Virus genome (UHGV): UHGV-0141986
Length of the DNA stretch: 11,633 nt
From: a virus
Direction: 5' to 3' (one strand)
Shown: positions 1 through 8,568 of the stretch, piece after piece
How positions within the stretch are numbered: position 1 is the stretch's first letter
Layout of the letters: every line of letters starts with the position of its first letter
Program-made: the position numbers and the translations under genes
Notes under the pieces: generated by a model
Seen by the model: the letters and a program-made list of their open reading frames with translations, nothing else
Told to the model about the DNA's origin: nothing
The model's database searches: none

Positions 1-605
1 GTTAATCTTAATGTAAGGCTCAGGCCAGTTTGGGTTTAATGCTTTGAGATAACGCTGTGTTCCATCTTCTATCAATCGCTTGAAGGTGGTTTCGCCTGTA
101 TCGTGCATCAATGCAATAACGTCGTCACCGTGGCAGGCAGGGACTTCGGGATCAACAAAAATCATGTCTCCAGGGCGGTACTCATCAATCATTGAATCAC
201 CAATCACCCGCAAGATATAAGTCATTTCGCCACAGGGTACAGGGCAGGGATAAGTTTCTGCTGTGCTCAAATCAACCTCAGAATAGCCAACTTCTTTCCA
301 TGCTCCGGCCTGTACCCATGATATGACAGGGACTAACGTTATTTGTTTGTTAGTGATTGAAACATCAGGTTTTTTTGTGATGTTCGTTGTCTGGTGTTCT
401 TGATCAAGCCATCCGACAGGCAGGTCGAAACATTTTTCGATGTGCCGTGCCATGCTGTCACCGATATTTTAGTAGCGCCATCCCCCATAAACCTGCTGGT
501 TTGGGTTGGCTCGCGATCAATCATGGTGGCAAAGGATGAATTTCCGCCAACACCATCTCTCAGTTTTCTGGCGTTAGACCGCCGGATGTCATGGATTGTT
601 TTCAT
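1..605 (-). pseudogene. cI-type prophage repressor (N-terminal HTH plus S24/LexA-like autopeptidase domain); C-terminus runs off the window start; apparent 1-nt frameshift near 466-471
   Basis: Minus-strand translation from 453 down to 1 gives MARHIEKCFDLPVGWLDQEH...VPVISWVQAGAW...ILRVIGDSMIDEYRPGDMIFVDPEVPACHGDDVIALMHDTGETTFKRLIEDGTQRYLKALNPNWPEPYIKIN, with the GDSM serine and TFKRL lysine motifs typical of S24 peptidases. The HTH part (MKTIHDIRRSNARKL...SFATMIDREPTQTSRFMGDG, track ORF 339..605) is in a different frame. The two frames can only be joined by a 1-nt indel around the T4 run at 467-470. Confidence 0.6.
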
Positions 606-927: not shown

Positions 928-1491
928 ATGAGGCTAACCGTGGGTAAGTATCACTGGAAAGTAGAAAAACAGCCTGAGTGGTACGTGAAAGCTGTCAGAA
1001 AAACTATCGCAGCGTTGCCGGGTGGTTACGCTGAAGCAGCTGACTGGCTGGATGTAACAGAGAACGCATTATTTAACCGCCTTCGTGCCGATGGCGATCA
1101 GATTTTCCCGCTGGGATGGGCAATGGTTTTACAGCGCGCGGCTGGCACTCACTACATTGCGGATGCTGTCGCACAGTCTGCTGGTGGGGTGTTCGTATCG
1201 CTTCCTGAAATTGAGGAAGTAGAGAACGCCGATATAAACCAGCGCCTGCTGGAAGTCATCGAACAGATCGGGAATTACTCAAAGCAGATTCGTTCGGCAA
1301 TCGAAGATGGGGTCGTGGAGCCACACGAGCAGACAGCAATTAATGATGAGTTGTATCTGTCAATTTCGAAGCTCCAGGAGCATGCAGCACTGGTCTACAA
1401 AATCTTTTGCGCCCCAGAAAAGAGTGACGCCCGCGAGTGTGCAGCTCCGGGCGTCGTGGCGTTTTGTGTCTGTGGAGAAACTAACGCATGA
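928..1491 (+). CDS. CII-like phage regulatory protein (CP76 / YdaT-like family); true start may be the in-frame GTG at 940
   Basis: 187-aa ORF directly after the cro-like gene. The segment NALFNRLRADGDQIFPLGWAMVL...YIADAVAQ resembles the HTH region of CII(CP76)-type regulators as I recall them. GAGG at 930-933 sits 6 nt before GTG 940. Confidence 0.65.
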   Translation: MRLTVGKYHWKVEKQPEWYVKAVRKTIAALPGGYAEAADWLDVTENALFNRLRADGDQIFPLGWAMVLQRAAGTHYIADAVAQSAGGVFVSLPEIEEVENADINQRLLEVIEQIGNYSKQIRSAIEDGVVEPHEQTAINDELYLSISKLQEHAALVYKIFCAPEKSDARECAAPGVVAFCVCGETNA

Positions 1492-2299: not shown

Positions 2300-2528
2300 T
2301 CCGTTGATCCTCAATATTTGCCGTTTGCTTCAGCGTAAAAAAACATCAATTCCTACCGTTGGTCAGTGGTATACCACGCCTGCAGGGCATGTTCTACGTG
2401 TTAGCCTGGTTGACCGTGAATGTCAGAAGGTGGTTTGTGAACCGCTGGGCCGTAATTACCGCGTCAGTATGCCGCTTATAGCCTTTCGCTCCGGAAAAAA
2501 CATGAAGCATCTCGGAGGTGCAGCATGA
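2292..2528 (+). CDS. Hypothetical small phage protein (78 aa), possible paralog of the 1637-1816 product
   Basis: ATG 2292 with GGAGGG at 2279-2284. Segment GQWYTTPAGHVLRVSLVDRECQKVVCEPLGRNYRVSMPLIAF shares a Y..G.V.V...RV...YP.EC..P..F-type pattern with the 1637-1816 product. Stop overlaps the next start (ATGA at 2525). Confidence 0.6.
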   Translation: MLNPLILNICRLLQRKKTSIPTVGQWYTTPAGHVLRVSLVDRECQKVVCEPLGRNYRVSMPLIAFRSGKNMKHLGGAA

Positions 2529-3364
2529 GTATGGAGCTGATGGTTAAAGCGATGAAAATTCGAGTGGGTAATCCATTGCGAAAACTGGTTCTGATCAAGC
2601 TGGCTGATAATGCCAGCGATCAGGGTGAGTGCTGGCCCAGCTACCAGCATATTGCTGACCAGTGCGAGATTAGCAAACGTTCTGTGATGAATCATATTGC
2701 GGCCCTTTGTGAGTCCGGGCTGGTAAAAAAAGTCACCCGGAAAGGTGAAAAAGGTAACTCAAGTAATATCTATCTCCTTCATCTGGATGGTGCAGGAGAT
2801 TCACTAGGGGGTAGTGCAAATAATTCACTATCTGGTGCAGCAAATTCACCAGGTAGTGCAGGAGTTGCACCAGGTAGTGCAGGAGTTGCACCAGGGGGTA
2901 GTGCAGGAGATTCACCCAGAACCAGTCACTCTTTTGAACCAGTCAAAGAATCAGTCAATGAACCAATAGCTGTTGGTGCATCTGCTGATGAGTCTGTGCG
3001 AGTTCGTTCAAACCGACCGGAATACTCTCCGGAGTTTGAGCAGGCATGGCTGGCATATCCCAAACGTGCTGGTGGCAATTCAAAATCAGCAGCCTTCAAA
3101 GCCTGGAAAGCCCGTTTGAACGAGGGGGTAAACCCCGAAACCATGCTGGAAGGTGTGAATCGCTACGCGGGCTGGGTATCTGCGATGGGCAATAGCGGTA
3201 CACAATTTGTGAAACAGGCTGTCACGTTCTTTGGTCCGGATCGTCATTTCGAAGAATCCTGGGAAGTTCCTGCGGTATCTGCAGCCAGACGCGAGGACCC
3301 GTACTTCAAAGCCAGTTACGACAAAGTGGACTACAGCCAGATCCCGGCAGGATTCAGGGGGTGA
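2525..3364 (+). CDS. Phage replication initiation protein (N-terminal winged-HTH replisome-organizer domain, Gly/Ser/Ala-rich linker, C-terminal domain)
   Basis: 279 aa. N-terminus LRKLVLIKLADNASDQGECWPSYQHIADQCEISKRSVMNHIAALCESGLVKKV matches the HTH_36-type domain of phage replication initiators (from memory). GGAGG at 2513-2517. The linker is encoded by the repeat array at 2789-2917. Confidence 0.75.
   Translation: MSMELMVKAMKIRVGNPLRKLVLIKLADNASDQGECWPSYQHIADQCEISKRSVMNHIAALCESGLVKKVTRKGEKGNSSNIYLLHLDGAGDSLGGSANNSLSGAANSPGSAGVAPGSAGVAPGGSAGDSPRTSHSFEPVKESVNEPIAVGASADESVRVRSNRPEYSPEFEQAWLAYPKRAGGNSKSAAFKAWKARLNEGVNPETMLEGVNRYAGWVSAMGNSGTQFVKQAVTFFGPDRHFEESWEVPAVSAARREDPYFKASYDKVDYSQIPAGFRG
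2789..2917. repeat. Array of six iteron-like direct repeats (core GTGCA-N5-TKCAC, 21-24 bp spacing) inside the replication gene; candidate replication origin
   Basis: Core elements start at 2790, 2814, 2835, 2856, 2877 and 2901. Units at 2852-2872 and 2873-2893 are identical 21-mers (GGTAGTGCAGGAGTTGCACCA). Each core has internal dyad symmetry (GTGCA / TGCAC). Confidence 0.6.
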
Positions 3365-3366
3365 TC

Positions 3367-3855
3367 ATGAGTCTGTTAAATGACGTTCAGAAATTCATTG
3401 AAGCCCATCCTGGGTGTACTTCCGGAGACATTGCGGATGCTTTTGCAGGTTACTCACGGCAGCGCGTTCTGCAGTCTGCAAGCAAGTTACGTCAGAGTGG
3501 GCGTGTGGCTCACCGTTGTGAAGGATATACACGCAGACATTTCCCGCGCCTGACTGAGAGAGCGCAGGAGCCGGAACCACAACCAGTTCGTGAAACCAGA
3601 CCTGTGCGCAATTTCTATGTCGGCACTAACGATCCCCGGGTGATTTTGTGCCTGACCCGCCAGGCTGAAGAACTGGAGTCCAGGGGCTTATACCGTCGTG
3701 CTGCAACCGTGTGGATGGCGGCATTCCGTGAAAGCCACTCCCAGCCAGAACGAAACAATTTTCTGGCACGTCGTGAGCGGTGCTTACGGAAAAGCAGCAA
3801 GCGCGCTGTATCGGGTGATGAGTGGTATCTGTCAGGGAATTACGTGGGGGCTTAA
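3367..3855 (+). CDS. PerC-family-like putative transcriptional regulator
   Basis: ATG 3367 preceded by GGGGG (3356-3360). C-terminal segment LTRQAEELESRGLYRRAATVWMAAF resembles the conserved PerC/Pch core (from memory). Stop overlaps the Dam start (TAATG). Confidence 0.6.
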   Translation: MSLLNDVQKFIEAHPGCTSGDIADAFAGYSRQRVLQSASKLRQSGRVAHRCEGYTRRHFPRLTERAQEPEPQPVRETRPVRNFYVGTNDPRVILCLTRQAEELESRGLYRRAATVWMAAFRESHSQPERNNFLARRERCLRKSSKRAVSGDEWYLSGNYVGA

Positions 3856-4478
3856 TGAGTAATAAATATTGCCAGGAGCTGGTGGAGCTGCGGAACAAAC
3901 CAGCCCATGAACTGAAGGAAGTGGGCGATCAGTGGCGCACGCCGGATAACATTTTCTGGGGAATTAACACCCTGTTTGGCCCGTTTGTCCTGGATCTGTT
4001 TACTGACGGTGATAACGCCAAATGTACCGCGTATTACACGGCGGAAGACAACGCGCTGGCGCATGACTGGTCAGAACGTCTTGCGGAGCTTAAAGGTGCT
4101 GCCTTTGGTAATCCCCCATACAGCCGCGCCAGTCAGCATGAGGGGCAATACATCACCGGCATGCGTGATAAAGGCGGGCGCTATGTTTTCCTGATCAAAG
4201 CTGCCACCAGCGAAGTGTGGTGGCCGGAAGATGCAGATCATATTGCTTTTATTCGCGGGCGTATTGGTTTTGAACTGCCTGCCTGGTTTATCCCGAAAGA
4301 TGAGAAGCAGGTGCCGACAGGCGCTTTCTTCGCTGGTGCTATTGCTGTTTTCGACAAGACCTGGAAGGGACCGGCAATCAGCTACATCGGGCGCGATGAA
4401 CTTGAGGCATGTGGTGAGGCGTTTCTGGCGCAGGTTCGCCAGCAGGCGGAAAAACTGGTCAGGGAGATGGCGGCATGA
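3855..4478 (+). CDS. Phage DNA N-6-adenine methyltransferase (Dam, phage-type)
   Basis: MSNKYCQELVELRNKPAHELKEVGDQWRTPDNIFWGINTLFGPFVLDLFTDGDNAKCTAYYTAEDNALAHDWSE...AAFGNPPYS carries the NPPY catalytic motif and the N-terminal WxTP signature. Track start 3822 overlaps the upstream gene; ATG 3855 is preferred. Confidence 0.85.
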   Translation: MSNKYCQELVELRNKPAHELKEVGDQWRTPDNIFWGINTLFGPFVLDLFTDGDNAKCTAYYTAEDNALAHDWSERLAELKGAAFGNPPYSRASQHEGQYITGMRDKGGRYVFLIKAATSEVWWPEDADHIAFIRGRIGFELPAWFIPKDEKQVPTGAFFAGAIAVFDKTWKGPAISYIGRDELEACGEAFLAQVRQQAEKLVREMAA

Positions 4479-4801
4479 CGACTTTAACTCAATGCCAGCA
4501 GCAGGTGCTGGATATGCTGATTTCTTATCAGAAAGAACGTGGCTTCCCGCCAACCAATCAGGAGGTGGCAACCATGCTGGGATACCGTTCAGTGAATGCA
4601 GCGGTGGAGCATCTTCGCGCACTGGAGAAAAAAGGCGTCATCACGATAAAGCGTGGTGTGGCCCGGGGGATCACGCTTCATACCGTGGTGAAGGACGACG
4701 ACAGCGAGGCGGTCGGGATTATCCGCTCACTGCTTGCCGGTGAGGAAAACGCCAGGCTGCGTGCAGCCCACTGGTTACATGAGAGGGGCCTGAAAGTATG
4801 A
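4475..4801 (+). CDS. LexA-like protein with DNA-binding domain only (no S24 peptidase domain)
   Basis: 108 aa. First ~70 aa (MTTLTQCQQQVLDMLISYQKERGFPPTNQEVATMLGYRSVNAAVEHLRALEKKGVITIKRGVARGITLH) align by eye to the E. coli LexA N-terminal winged helix. The 39-aa tail has no Ser/Lys peptidase motifs. ATGA overlap with Dam stop. Confidence 0.8.
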   Translation: MTTLTQCQQQVLDMLISYQKERGFPPTNQEVATMLGYRSVNAAVEHLRALEKKGVITIKRGVARGITLHTVVKDDDSEAVGIIRSLLAGEENARLRAAHWLHERGLKV

Positions 4802-5193
4802 AGCTGATCCTGCCTTTTCCGCCCAGCGTGAACACGTACTGGCGACACCCCAACAAAGGGGCGTTTGCTGGTAAGAGCCTGATAAGCGCGGCGGGGCGAA
4901 AATTCCAGAGCGCGGCGTGTGCAGCAATAGTTGAGCAGTTACGTCGTCTGCCAAAACCAACGTCGGCACCTGCTTCAGTGGAGATCGTGTTGTTTCCTCC
5001 GGATAACCGGATCCGCGATCTGGACAACTATAACAAGGCGCTGTTTGACGCCCTGACCCACGCGGGTGTGTGGGAAGACGACAGTCAGGTGAAAAGAATG
5101 CTGGTGGAGTGGGGACCGGTTATCCCGGAGGGGAAGGTCGAGATCACTATCAGTAAGTACGAAAAAGCGAGTTGCAAATTAGCAACTCGGTAA
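4798..5193 (+). CDS. rusA: Holliday-junction resolvase RusA
   Basis: 131 aa. LPFPPSVNTYWRH...RDLDNYNKALFDALTHAGVWEDDSQV matches the RusA family including the catalytic Asp-rich RDLDN region. ATGA overlap with upstream stop. Confidence 0.9.
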   Translation: MKLILPFPPSVNTYWRHPNKGAFAGKSLISAAGRKFQSAACAAIVEQLRRLPKPTSAPASVEIVLFPPDNRIRDLDNYNKALFDALTHAGVWEDDSQVKRMLVEWGPVIPEGKVEITISKYEKASCKLATR

Positions 5194-5238
5194 CGGAATT
5201 GAGCAACACCCTAAATTTGGGTATTACCTCGTTAAAGA

Positions 5239-5258
5239 TACTGTATTTATGAACAGTG
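5239..5258. promoter_or_regulatory. Candidate LexA (SOS) box TACTGTATTTATGAACAGTG upstream of the KilA-N gene
   Basis: CTGT-N8-ACAG with AT-rich spacer; 16 of 20 positions match consensus TACTGTATATATATACAGTA. It lies about 100 nt upstream of ATG 5356, next to a candidate promoter (-35 TTGATA 5264-5269, -10 TAAGTT 5287-5292). Confidence 0.55.
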
Positions 5259-5355
5259 TATCCTTGATAACTATTAAAAATCGCAGTAAGTTCATCCTGC
5301 ATCAACGAAAAGGGAGTGCAGTCCCGCTCGTGGATAAAAATTTGTGGAGAAACCA

Positions 5356-6171
5356 ATGAATCAGTTGCTTGTAATTGATGGCGTTTCTGTGCGCCAGTAC
5401 TTCGAATCTAACTACTGTCTTAACGACCTTCAGAAAGCTGCTCTTCTTGCCGCTGGTGAGAATCGCTCCTCCCGTTCGCTGGAAGTTCACGAGTTTATGC
5501 GTCGTCCTGAAACGAAGGCTCTTGTGGAATTATTGGAAGAAGAAACTACGGGAGATTCCCGTAGTATTCCTGTCATCACCATTCAGGGGCGCAATGGTGG
5601 GACGTATGTCTGTAAAGAGCTGGTCTATGCATATGCAATGTGGATCAGCCCGGCATTCAGCTTAAAAGTGATACGTACTTTTGATGCGCTTCATAATTCA
5701 TCACCAGAAGAAACCACATCCGACAAAATTAAATCCGGGGTCATTCTGCTTGAATCAGCAGCAAAGACTCTAAATCTGTCAAACTCCTCGAAACTTGGTG
5801 CATACCAGAAATTATCAAAGGTAGCTGGTCTTCCTGAACTTATGCCGATCTATGCCATTGATGCACCTGCTGATGCGCCAGATGGTTCAAGCCGCCCTAC
5901 GCTGTCGCTGAGTGCACTGCTGAAGCAGTATGGTATCCGCCTGACGGCTAATCAGGCATATCACCAGATGGCGAAGCTGGGGATCGTTGAACAACGCGAA
6001 CGATACAGTCGTACCGCGATTAACAACATCAAAAAATTCTGGTCGCTGACCGCGAAAGGCTGCATGTTCGGCAAGAACATCACCAGTCCTGCAAATCCGC
6101 GCGAGACGCAGCCGCATTTCTTCGAATCCCGATTCCCTGAGCTGTTAAAGCTGCTCGATACCGTTCATTGA
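5356..6171 (+). CDS. KilA-N domain protein (antirepressor/Roi-like)
   Basis: GGAG at 5346-5349 precedes ATG 5356. N-terminal domain ...GRNGGTYVCKELVYAYAMWISPAFSLKVIRTF fits the KilA-N signature. Track start GTG 5344 is less likely. Confidence 0.75.
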   Translation: MNQLLVIDGVSVRQYFESNYCLNDLQKAALLAAGENRSSRSLEVHEFMRRPETKALVELLEEETTGDSRSIPVITIQGRNGGTYVCKELVYAYAMWISPAFSLKVIRTFDALHNSSPEETTSDKIKSGVILLESAAKTLNLSNSSKLGAYQKLSKVAGLPELMPIYAIDAPADAPDGSSRPTLSLSALLKQYGIRLTANQAYHQMAKLGIVEQRERYSRTAINNIKKFWSLTAKGCMFGKNITSPANPRETQPHFFESRFPELLKLLDTVH

Positions 6172-6172
6172 G

Positions 6173-7168
6173 GTGACCGTGAGAGCACTACTGACCCCTG
6201 AAATTGCCCCGCGTATGGGGATCGTATTGTTCAGACCAGGTTCAGAGCTGATGCCCTTGTTTATGCAGGGGCGTGTCCTGCTGGAGCCTGAGCCGGAACG
6301 TTATTCATCTTTCGCCAGTGGTGCCGTTCCGGCGGCATCACAACCGCTGGCGGATGATCCTGCCGTTCGGGCCGTGTTCCGCAATGAGGCAGTGATCCGT
6401 CGTGCTGGTGGCGTGGAATGTCTTGAAAGCTGGTTACTTCGTGAAAAAGGCTGCCAGTGGCCTCATTCCGACTGGCACAGCGAGAATATGACAACAATGC
6501 GACACGCTCCGGGCGCAATCCGTCTGTGCTGGCACTGCGATAACCAGCTGCGCGATCAGTTCACGGAACGGCTGGAATCAATGGCAACGGATAACTGTGC
6601 CCGCTGGGTGTTGTCTGTTGTGCGTCGGGATCTCGGTTTTGATGACAGTCATGTTGTGACAATGCCGGAACTGTGCTGGTGGCTGATTCGTAATGATCTG
6701 GCGGATGCCTTACCGGAAAGTGCAGCCCGTAAGGCACTGAGATTACCGAAGCCTGTTGTGCCGTCTGTTACCCGGGAAAGTGACCTTGTGCCTTCGGTTC
6801 CTGCCACCAGCATCATCCAGGATAAGGCGAAAAAGGTGCTGGCGCTGAAAGTGGATCCGGAGTCGCCGGAGTCTTTTATGTTACGCCCAAAACGTCACCG
6901 CTGGGTTAATGAAAAGTACACGCGCTGGGTTAAGACGCAGCCGTGCGCATGTTGTGGAAAACCTGCTGATGATCCCCACCACCTGATAGGCCACGGTCAG
7001 GGGGGAATGGGTACAAAAGCGCATGACCTTTTTGTGTTGCCTTTGTGCAGAAAGCATCACGACGAGCTGCATGCGGATACCGTGGCATTTGAAGAGAAGT
7101 ATGGCTCCCAGCTGGAGCTGATATTTCGTTTTATCGATCGTGCGCTGGCAATAGGCGTACTGGCGTAA
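6173..7168 (+). CDS. DUF968-family prophage protein (YdfU-like) with C-terminal Cys/His cluster
   Basis: 331 aa. C-terminus CACCGKPADDPHHLIGHGQGGMGTKAHDLFVLPLCRKHHDELH. Position immediately upstream of Q matches ydfU in K-12 Qin (from memory). Start may be GTG 6173 or GTG 6179. Confidence 0.7.
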   Translation: MTVRALLTPEIAPRMGIVLFRPGSELMPLFMQGRVLLEPEPERYSSFASGAVPAASQPLADDPAVRAVFRNEAVIRRAGGVECLESWLLREKGCQWPHSDWHSENMTTMRHAPGAIRLCWHCDNQLRDQFTERLESMATDNCARWVLSVVRRDLGFDDSHVVTMPELCWWLIRNDLADALPESAARKALRLPKPVVPSVTRESDLVPSVPATSIIQDKAKKVLALKVDPESPESFMLRPKRHRWVNEKYTRWVKTQPCACCGKPADDPHHLIGHGQGGMGTKAHDLFVLPLCRKHHDELHADTVAFEEKYGSQLELIFRFIDRALAIGVLA

Positions 7169-7181
7169 GTGGAGAACGAGC

Positions 7182-7934
7182 ATGAACCTTGAAGCCTTAC
7201 CAAAATATTACTCCCCAAAATCTCCAAAATTGAGTGATGACGCACCGGCGACAGGCTCTGGTGGTTTAACGATTACGGATGTGATGGCTGCGCAGGGGAT
7301 GGTGCAATCGAAAGCACCGCTTGGGTTTGCCTTATTCCTGGCAAAAGTTGGTGTTCAGGATCCTCAGTTTGCGATTGAAGGTCTGCTCAATTACGCGATG
7401 GCACTGGATAACCCGACATTGAATAAATTGAGTGAAGAAACCCGGCTACAGATTATTCCTTACCTTGTGAATTTTGCCTTTGCTGATTATTCCAGGTCTG
7501 CGGCAAGTAAGGCTCGTTGTGAGCATTGTGCTGGTACTGGATTTCATAATGTATTGCGCGAAGTGGTGAAACACTCCAGAAGCGGGGAATCTGTTATCAA
7601 AGAAGAGTGGGTGAAGGAACTATGTCAGCATTGCCATGGTAAGGGAGAAGTCAGCACAGCGTGCAGAGGGTGTAAGGGTAAAGGTATTGTCCTGGATGAA
7701 AAAAGGACCCGGCTTCATGGCACACCTGTTTATAAGATTTGTGGGCGTTGCAATGGAAAACGGTTTAGTCGTTTACCAACCACACTGGCGCGGCATCATG
7801 TCCAGAAGCTGGTACCGGACCTGAGTGATTATCAGTGGTATAAAGGATATGCAAATGTCATTGATAAACTGGTTACAAAGTGCTGGCAGGAGGAATCTTA
7901 CGCTGAAGCACAATTGAGAAAGGTGACGAGATAA
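7182..7934 (+). CDS. Late-gene antitermination protein Q (QuuQ-like, phage 21/82 type)
   Basis: 250 aa with multiple Cys pairs (CEHCAGTG, CQHCHGKG, CRGCKGKG, CGRCNGKRF). GGAG at 7171-7174 precedes ATG 7182. Followed by a promoter-plus-terminator leader, as expected for Q. Confidence 0.85.
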   Translation: MNLEALPKYYSPKSPKLSDDAPATGSGGLTITDVMAAQGMVQSKAPLGFALFLAKVGVQDPQFAIEGLLNYAMALDNPTLNKLSEETRLQIIPYLVNFAFADYSRSAASKARCEHCAGTGFHNVLREVVKHSRSGESVIKEEWVKELCQHCHGKGEVSTACRGCKGKGIVLDEKRTRLHGTPVYKICGRCNGKRFSRLPTTLARHHVQKLVPDLSDYQWYKGYANVIDKLVTKCWQEESYAEAQLRKVTR

Positions 7935-7955
7935 GTGATTTTCGCCGAAGATGGC

Positions 7956-7983
7956 GACGTGATGCTTGCATTTTCAAAAAATA
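7956..7983 (+). promoter_or_regulatory. Candidate late promoter PR' (-35 TTGCAT 7956-7961, 16-bp spacer, -10 TAAAAT 7978-7983)
   Basis: Located directly downstream of Q and about 55 nt upstream of a strong intrinsic terminator, the arrangement expected for a Q-modified late leader. Hexamers identified by eye. Confidence 0.35.
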
Positions 7984-8038
7984 TGGATAAAATTTTTTCA
8001 ACGATGGGCTTTGTATACCCGAAGTTAAGAAAAAGTAG

Positions 8039-8066
8039 AAAACCCGCTGATGAGCGGGTTTTTGTG
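8039..8066 (+). terminator. Rho-independent terminator (tR'-like)
   Basis: AACCCGCT (8041-8048), loop GATG, AGCGGGTT (8053-8060), followed by TTTGTGCTTT. Confidence 0.65.
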
Positions 8067-8355
8067 CTTTAAATAGGGTAATAGAGATGTTGAATCTCAT
8101 TACGGGATTCATGTTAGTTTACTTATTATTTATCGGGTGACTTTGTTTTTTGCCTGATGTTTAAAATGTTTTCTTCCAGTACAATGTCCATAGATACAAT
8201 GAGTTTGCTTATTACATTATTAGCAGAGCTATTAAGGTCAAAGTACAGCATAAGCTTTTAAAGCCAATCAACCAGTCATCAAGACAGACGGGTTTATTCA
8301 TGAAAACTCTCCATGTTTGATTCGATGGGGCTTGAAGTTAAAGCTTTAATATAGC

Positions 8356-8568
8356 TCATGAAAGGTAAACATTGGCAGCTGATGGTCCACGCAGACCATT
8401 TATCCGGCAAAATTCCACGCGTAATCCGGTGGTAATTTCTTCTGCATCGCGGAGATTGAGCGCTGAAACATGAAGCTGGACATCGATACGACCATCGGAT
8501 GGGGTTATAAGACCTTTGCCGCTTTTGCCGTCAAAGGTTTTGAGAATTCCTGTCATTTTACGGGACAA
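8356..8568 (-). CDS. cspF: Cold-shock-like protein CspF/CspH type (lacks canonical RNP motifs); TTG start
   Basis: [70 protein letters not shown]. First codon on the minus strand is TTG (8568-8566), preceded by TAAGGA; first ATG is at 8556. Divergent from cspB as in Qin. Confidence 0.85.

Follow-up and report, generated by a model that had tools for sequence, protein, structure and literature searches.

The 20-mer TACTGTATTTATGAACAGTG, found at positions 5239-5258 of the window (the whole 11,633-nucleotide stretch of the virus genome UHGV-0141986 analyzed herein), is best read from its sequence as a genuine high-affinity operator for the host LexA, and on balance we favor the interpretation that this operator would render the KilA-N and DUF968 genes, and probably also the antiterminator gene Q, an SOS-inducible unit in the nin region of a lambdoid prophage. 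As summarized in Table 1, the site lies inside the 162-bp gap between rusA and the KilA-N gene, and the extent of this gap, from the rusA end at 5193 to the ATG at 5356, was as originally predicted.

Table 1. Features of the window discussed in the text, in order of position
Feature	Position	Strand	Basis or remarks
e14 ymfK-like gene for a cI-type repressor, with a frameshift and truncated at the window edge	1-605	-	HTH and S24 parts in different frames
cII-like	928-1491	+	
Replication protein	2525-3364	+	
PerC-like	3361-3855	+	
Dam methylase	3822-4478	+	
LexA N-terminal DNA-binding-domain-only protein, 108 aa, no S24 protease domain	4475-4801	+	Pfam LexA_DNA_bind, E=2.9e-19
rusA Holliday-junction resolvase	4798-5193	+	Pfam RusA
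rusA–KilA-N gap	5194-5355		
Near-consensus LexA operator (SOS box) TACTGTATTTATGAACAGTG	5239-5258	.	Matrix score, HI, invariant core
Predicted sigma-70 promoter: -35 TTGATA (5264-5269), 17-bp spacer, -10 TAAGTT (5287-5292)	5264-5292	+	Relaxed matrix and conservation
Leader hairpin: upper stem-loop GGGA-GUGCAG-UCCC (5312-5325) on lower stem ACGA/UCGU	5305-5331	+	Covariation
Shine-Dalgarno GGAG, 6 nt before the ATG at 5356	5346-5349	+	
271-aa protein with an N-terminal KilA-N/APSES domain, a helical linker, and an uncharacterised domain at the C-terminus	5356-6171	+	Pfam PF04383
DUF968/HNH nuclease-like protein, 331 aa	6173-7168	+	Pfam DUF968, E=3.4e-81; HNHc_6; PHROG 96 'HNH endonuclease'
Late antiterminator Q, PF03589 type, 250 aa	7182-7934	+	Pfam Antiterm, E=1.5e-53
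csp genes (cspB/cspF-like), then lysis cassette	downstream of Q	+	

The SOS-box palindrome CTGT-N8-ACAG was matched exactly at 5241-5256, with both arms intact around an AT-rich 8-bp spacer as the original prediction had described, and TACTGTATTTATGAACAGTG differed from TACTGTATATATATACAGTA at four positions, all of which are weakly weighted. The check proposed along with that prediction, namely the scoring of the site with a LexA matrix and heterology index (HI), was performed with a matrix compiled from 31 E. coli LexA operators and symmetrised, and gave 21.0-21.8 bits and an HI of 5.5. This HI falls between those of sulA/recA (5.2) and yebG (6.2), and well inside the range of the training operators (2.1-12.1, median 6.5). 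When the window was randomised 2000 times with a first-order Markov model, a score of 21.8 bits was reached once, and the match is not a product of chance. The second-best LexA site of the window reached 10.9 bits, while the spacer of the other exact CTGT-N8-ACAG (1591-1606) is rich in GC and the score there is just about 6.7 bits; the earlier wording that 5239-5258 is the only strong site of this type in the window is therefore fair. In the 39.8-kb genome of Shigella phage SfIV as well, the box in the rusA–KilA-N gap was the sole strong LexA box, the runner-up having 10.8 bits.

The window represents an e14/SfIV-like lambdoid prophage having an e14-like immunity region (ymfK/ymfT/ymfL), and shares 99.5% identity with Escherichia phage PhiR49_1 (4160-7164) and 98.5% with SfIV (4469-7164). 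Relative to these two phages it is mosaic: the segment 1502-3288, comprising hypothetical ORFs and most of the replication gene, is a different module, and the Q gene and the late region beyond 7164 likewise belong to modules that differ from theirs. Just before the gap, the last rusA codons contain a palindrome CGAGTTGCAAATTAGCAACTCG with a perfect 8-bp stem (5168-5189, 50 bp before the box), which has no plus-strand T-tract, is terminator-like on the minus strand, resembles the palindromes preceding the Gifsy LexA boxes, and is mutated at one stem position in strain AZ187. Behind the gap, the genes are tightly packed, with 1 nt between KilA-N and DUF968 and 13 nt between DUF968 and Q, and no convincing plus-strand terminator was found between 5356 and 7934. 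Any promoter in the gap should thus transcribe DUF968 and Q in addition to KilA-N. Approximately 100 bp past Q, a hairpin AAAACCCGCTGATGAGCGGGTTTT with a strong 10-bp stem (8039-8062) is flanked by A and T runs and resembles a bidirectional terminator, possibly the one of the tR' type in the late promoter region.

A strict sigma-70 scan of 4700-5700 gave no promoter in the gap, and both a relaxed matrix and cross-genus conservation were needed to find the one at 5264-5292. With this promoter matrix, its score of 10.2 was the best in the gap and exceeded the 95th percentile of the 260-bp tiles of the window. An alignment of the gap with its orthologs (Kluyvera georgiana, a second Kluyvera, and one each from Kosakonia, Leclercia, and Raoultella) showed no variation among the six lineages in the TG of the -35 hexamer, in the TAAnnT of the -10 hexamer, or in the spacing of exactly 17 bp, the sequence of the spacer being variable. 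These comparisons provide good evidence for a real promoter with a predicted start near 5299, having a weak -10 hexamer (three of six consensus matches). Other candidate promoters in the gap, on the minus strand or overlapping the box, were rejected for their poor scores in the window (8.1 and -4.3).

With the start near 5299, the box is placed at about -60 to -41 and centered at about -51, so that it lies upstream of the entire -35/-10/+1 region, its end being 5 bp from the -35 hexamer. This is an unusual position for LexA. Since the box covers the zone where the UP element/alpha C-terminal domain would dock, however, we infer that repression from there is plausible. In an undamaged lysogen, LexA bound at this zone next to the -35 hexamer would damp the weak promoter, and upon DNA damage, the RecA-stimulated self-cleavage of LexA would allow transcription of the KilA-N and DUF968/HNH genes with read-through from the gap promoter into Q. 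Such damage-driven expression of the three genes would not depend on PR, the main early promoter, and, if the box works, would constitute a repressor-independent route from the SOS response to late-gene expression.

LexA-controlled prophage genes set how and when DNA damage, including that caused by quinolone antibiotics, wakes prophages and their cargo, and prophages with the present box or unit occur in pathogenic E. coli O104:H4, O157:H7, O111, and O103 as well as in Shigella serotype-converting phages. The exact gap was found in only five phage records, all of the PhiR49_1 and SfIV types, and in 186 of 5426 complete E. coli genomes (approximately 3%), where it was always chromosomal (e.g., O104:H4 C227-11, S88, and O157:H7 FRIK944). 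The core ACTGTATTTATGAACAGT was invariant in the five E. coli/Shigella variants, the flanks of which vary by substitutions and an 11-bp deletion. Position 20 of the box is either G or A, and SfIV, having the consensus A, reaches 23.6 bits with an HI of 4.3.

We further surveyed 80 KilA-N homolog loci, taken from one genome per species, together with ten closer loci, and counted as LexA-like any site of at least 11 bits located up to 260 bp upstream of the KilA-N start. Such sites were present in 8 of the 17 loci with a gap of at least 100 bp and in none of the 16 with a gap of at most 66 bp, as compared with 11 of 684 control windows (1.6%) from the same loci. The classical LexA geometry, with the box overlapping the -10 hexamer of a good promoter, was seen in Erwinia (TTGCCA-17-TATATT), Serratia, and Rahnella. 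In the class to which the window belongs, the position of the palindrome is kept but its quality is not constant, the HI being 10.4 (Raoultella), 12.1 (Leclercia), 14.0 (Kosakonia), or 15.8 (Kluyvera georgiana). From these comparisons, LexA control appears to be recurrent in the KilA-N gene family and not universal, and the E. coli/Shigella site is the best of all.

Several other LexA boxes were encountered among these genomes. SfII (locus L099) carries a near-perfect box TACTGTTTTTATATACAGTA at 29167-29186, with 26.7 bits and an HI of 2.1, inside the cI coding sequence. Boxes of 22.6 bits, such as TACTGTAAAAATAAACAGTG, were located in Kluyvera, Rosenbergiella, and Providencia prophages (L004:6156, L012:5951, and L031:5460), in each case within the first codons of a gene for a DPPY-motif DNA methyltransferase downstream of Q, and the base changes among them preserve the box.

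The host LexA is not the only conceivable ligand of the site, as the prophage itself encodes a protein with a LexA-type DNA-binding domain two genes upstream of KilA-N and 440 bp upstream of the box. In this 108-aa protein, the LexA_DNA_bind domain covers residues 1-65, and the alignments to residues 2-86 of E. coli LexA and to positions 1-91 of the 203 of TIGR00498 indicate a counterpart of LexA residues 1 to approximately 90. Its recognition helix is nearly identical to that of E. coli LexA, keeping S39, N41, A42, A43, and E45, and its 'LAGE' motif aligns with the Ala-Gly cleavage region of LexA. In many enterobacterial prophages, the gene has been preserved in front of rusA. The protein could be a RecA-insensitive LexA mimic, and it is conceivable, though unlikely, that the box would be shared with, or would mainly serve, this truncated LexA made from the early operon, which might either activate the gap promoter or re-silence both this promoter and the host SOS genes after the onset of lytic growth. 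Consistent with this alternative, all loci in which the box stands just upstream of the -35 hexamer carry the gene two genes upstream of KilA-N, the position of the box and the poor -10 hexamer fit an upstream activator, and the palindrome position persists in relatives even where the left arm is unfit for the host LexA (GTG for CTG). A strict co-occurrence of the box with this gene nevertheless does not hold: the gene is present in phages having neither the box nor the gap (SfII and the Stx2c phages), and good boxes occur in the Erwinia, Serratia, and Rahnella loci that have no such gene, so that the two are not strictly coupled. Moreover, the 108-aa protein lacks the LexA dimerisation domain, and the monomeric N-terminal domain of LexA binds weakly.

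An experimentally demonstrated precedent for a truncated LexA acting on a phage promoter is gp6 of GIL01, which activates the late promoter P3 that the host LexA represses (PMC6182141). GIL01 and the window are alike in that a temperate phage encodes a protease-less LexA DNA-binding domain and has host LexA boxes at a promoter that feeds, or in the window probably feeds, late functions. They differ in that gp6, from a Gram-positive tectivirus, has a distinct palindrome centered at -43.5, whereas the recognition helix of the window protein is almost identical to that of the host LexA and its candidate site is the canonical SOS box at about -51. Slightly less probable than the preceding alternative is a circuit in which the cleavable host LexA and the protease-less phage LexA share the box, amounting to an equivalent of the LexA/gp6 circuit of GIL01 in a lambdoid phage of Gram-negative bacteria: DNA damage would free the site, which would next be occupied by the phage paralog, and this would either activate the entry into late-gene expression or shut down the SOS regulon again.

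It appears improbable, and more so than either role of the phage LexA, that the box is inert or decaying, in which case read-through from PR would feed KilA-N, DUF968, and Q, and the box would be a relic to which LexA binds to no effect or, at most, a minor roadblock or sink. Such an interpretation would be in line with the location of the box outside the core promoter and with the fate of its orthologs in close genera, since these are degraded in Leclercia, Kosakonia, Kluyvera, and Cedecea (HI 12-16) and lost in one Kluyvera (L004), while the promoter and the leader hairpin persist. In Citrobacter farmeri, the related site is degenerate (HI 21.6), and the shorter gap lacks this promoter segment. 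The degradation or loss of the orthologous boxes in loci where the promoter persists indicates that LexA control is not essential to the promoter. The majority of the KilA-N family members, furthermore, need no such control. A gap of at most 66 bp and no box was found in 16 of the 33 loci that have a full-length homolog and a gap that could be defined; the rusA–KilA-N gap of SfII, ST64B, and the Stx2c and Stx2k phages measures 16-19 bp and contains neither the box nor the promoter; and in the SfII, Stx2c, ST64B, Proteus, and Morganella prophages, KilA-N follows the preceding gene by 16-42 bp, again with no box or promoter. Against an inert site, however, the E. coli/Shigella box is near-perfect with an invariant core, its SfIV variant is closer still to the consensus, and boxes recur independently across genera in two promoter geometries at a frequency far above the control rate.

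The product of the gene following the box carries, as predicted, a KilA-N domain, which was identified by the PF04383 profile over residues 10-114 above the gathering score (E=1.3e-15), and the protein belongs to PHROG 129 (phrog_129), 'transcriptional regulator'. The N-terminal domain is clearly of the KilA-N type and shares 37% identity with P1 KilA over approximately 105 residues, whereas the C-terminal part of the window protein is unrelated to KilA-C/ANT. This part (residues 114-271, 158 aa) matched no Pfam family up to E=10, including ANT/KilA-C (PF03374). NCBIfam had no model for the protein, a PDB sequence search gave no functional clue, and PADLOC returned only a 36-bit partial match to PDC-S22. 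In the AlphaFold (AF2) model, with a pLDDT of 77, a helical linker connects the KilA-N/APSES domain, which gave fold matches to Mbp1 and poxvirus KilA-N proteins, to an alpha/beta domain at the C-terminus, which gave only weak, non-significant matches of a winged-helix-like type.

The KilA-N gene is adjacent to the DUF968/HNH gene in many genera (5356-7168 in the window; loci L002-L039 and L088-L097). Where a full-length KilA-N gene is present, DUF968 lies directly 3' in nearly all loci and rusA usually 5', while the Q family further downstream varies among PF03589, PF06530, and DUF1133. This conservation suggests that the KilA-N and DUF968 proteins work together, and the KilA-N product is best described, judging from its domains and gene neighborhood, as a DNA-binding regulator-like protein that would act with the adjacent DUF968 nuclease-like protein.

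The original prediction had placed this product in a candidate SOS-controlled antirepressor module. Its SOS part is well supported, on computational grounds, by the quality of the operator, the adjoining conserved promoter, and the boxes in other genera; its antirepressor part is not supported, and the label is best abandoned on the present evidence. No antirepressor family in Pfam, PHROGs, or NCBIfam matched the protein, no ANT domain was detected at E=10, and none of the best 120 of 2727 homologs was named an antirepressor, these being designated 'KilA-N domain-containing protein' or 'DNA-binding protein'. When 45 phage homologs were sampled at successively lower ranks, an antirepressor label, by annotation only, was seen on two that are distant and partial: Ruminococcus phage gp25, a distant homolog of the C-terminal part, and Mx9, a homolog of the N-terminal part. 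Besides these labels, KilA-N/Bro-N N-terminal domains are found in some proteins annotated as antirepressors, and a LexA box before a gene outside the immunity region is an arrangement also known from Gifsy, 186, and N15 (PMC3121763). Most relatives, however, express KilA-N from the early operon only, behind gaps of 16-42 bp with no box, and being delayed-early genes with no promoter of their own, they are incompatible with an ancestral antirepressor role. Given also that the tight linkage to DUF968 suggests a joint DNA-metabolic or regulatory role and that the cognate cI type itself carries an S24 autocleavage domain, we consider it highly improbable that KilA-N is a LexA-repressed antirepressor inactivating the cI of its own or a co-resident prophage as a second SOS input.

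As for this cI, the repressor had been described as carrying an autocleavage domain. The S24 peptidase part, with its VQAGAW and GDSM motifs, is indeed encoded, but the gene is not intact in the window: relative to the intact cI of PhiR49_1, one nucleotide is missing from a T5 run near 466-470, which leaves the S24 part out of frame, and the last 22 cI codons lie outside the window. The frameshift represents either a real pseudogene of a defective prophage or a homopolymer sequencing error, and for the cI stretch no complete E. coli genome matched above 98.9%. Because the cI of the window is broken, the proposal that such a prophage has two SOS inputs is applicable only to intact relatives such as PhiR49_1 and SfIV, in which it is possible.

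A literature search on the operator sequence, PhiR49, SfIV with KilA-N, and DUF968 found nothing bearing on the KilA-N–DUF968 module. Among the well-characterized systems, the box and its unit parallel the LexA-controlled operon of the Gifsy phages in architecture, with a different payload. In the dinI–antirepressor operon of Gifsy-1/2/3, as in the window, the LexA box lies in a nin-type region after the replication genes and outside the immunity region (PMC3121763), and a palindrome precedes the box; the unit of the window would, like that of Gifsy, be SOS-inducible independently of the main repressor. The payload is a DinI homolog with small antirepressors in Gifsy, in contrast to KilA-N with DUF968/HNH (and Q) in the window, and unlike in Gifsy, the box of the window is upstream of the -35 hexamer. 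Furthermore, the LexA-controlled antirepressors of Gifsy are paired with repressors having no autocleavage domain (Lemire et al., 2011, PMC3121763), whereas the cI type of the window has an S24 domain. 186 Tum and N15 AntC, insofar as they are described in PMC3121763, share with the control proposed for the present unit the feature that the host LexA directly controls a phage gene linking DNA damage to development, and no sequence or domain similarity between them and the KilA-N protein of the window was detected. The SOS-linked Gifsy-1 genes STM14_3218-3220 (PMC9879122) were considered as a KilA-N/DUF968 counterpart and rejected, as they lie in the immunity region, code for a ParA-like ATPase along with two hypothetical proteins, and are unrelated.

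Between the promoter and the KilA-N start codon, which is preceded by a GTGGAG conserved in nearly all KilA-N homolog loci, the leader can form a hairpin that, together with the phage LexA domain, constitutes a candidate regulatory part beside the box. The leaders were compared in anchored registers, their MAFFT alignment having been of no structural use. The motif TGCAG was found 26-75 nt upstream of the KilA-N start in 23 of 38 distinct upstream regions, where approximately 0.12 would be expected per region, and a stem of at least 4 bp was present at 19 of these 23 as compared with 17% of background TGCAGs (Fisher p=8e-11). The covariation of the hairpin was 0.81 versus 0.27 in shuffles, none of 500 of which reached 0.81, and at most 0.36 in slid registers; in the fixed register, none of the four inner pairs is ever broken, and each of them changes on both sides. 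The hairpin, in which the UGCAG loop is invariant, is conserved across Enterobacteriaceae, Erwiniaceae, and Yersiniaceae homologs. As the hairpin is also present in short-gap phages, where it falls within the rusA 3' end, it is part of the translation-initiation region of KilA-N and not of the SOS promoter, and it probably adds translational or stability control. An Rfam search of 4400-8400 with E up to 1 gave nothing but a chance Phe-leader match after Q, leaving the hairpin unmatched.

Near the hairpin there is often a second copy containing UGCA, which in the window is CUGCAU (5297-5302), and pairing between this copy and the self-complementary loop would be possible. Another 'conserved hairpin', ctttGTGCAGaaag at 7041-7054, was discarded, as it is the coding sequence for the LCRK part of the HNH motif. 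At 5330-5338, the minus strand carries the DnaA-box-like TTATCCACG, which matches TTATCCACA at eight of nine positions and falls within the 11 bp (CTCGTGGATAA) deleted in E. coli variants of 95% identity such as FRIK944.
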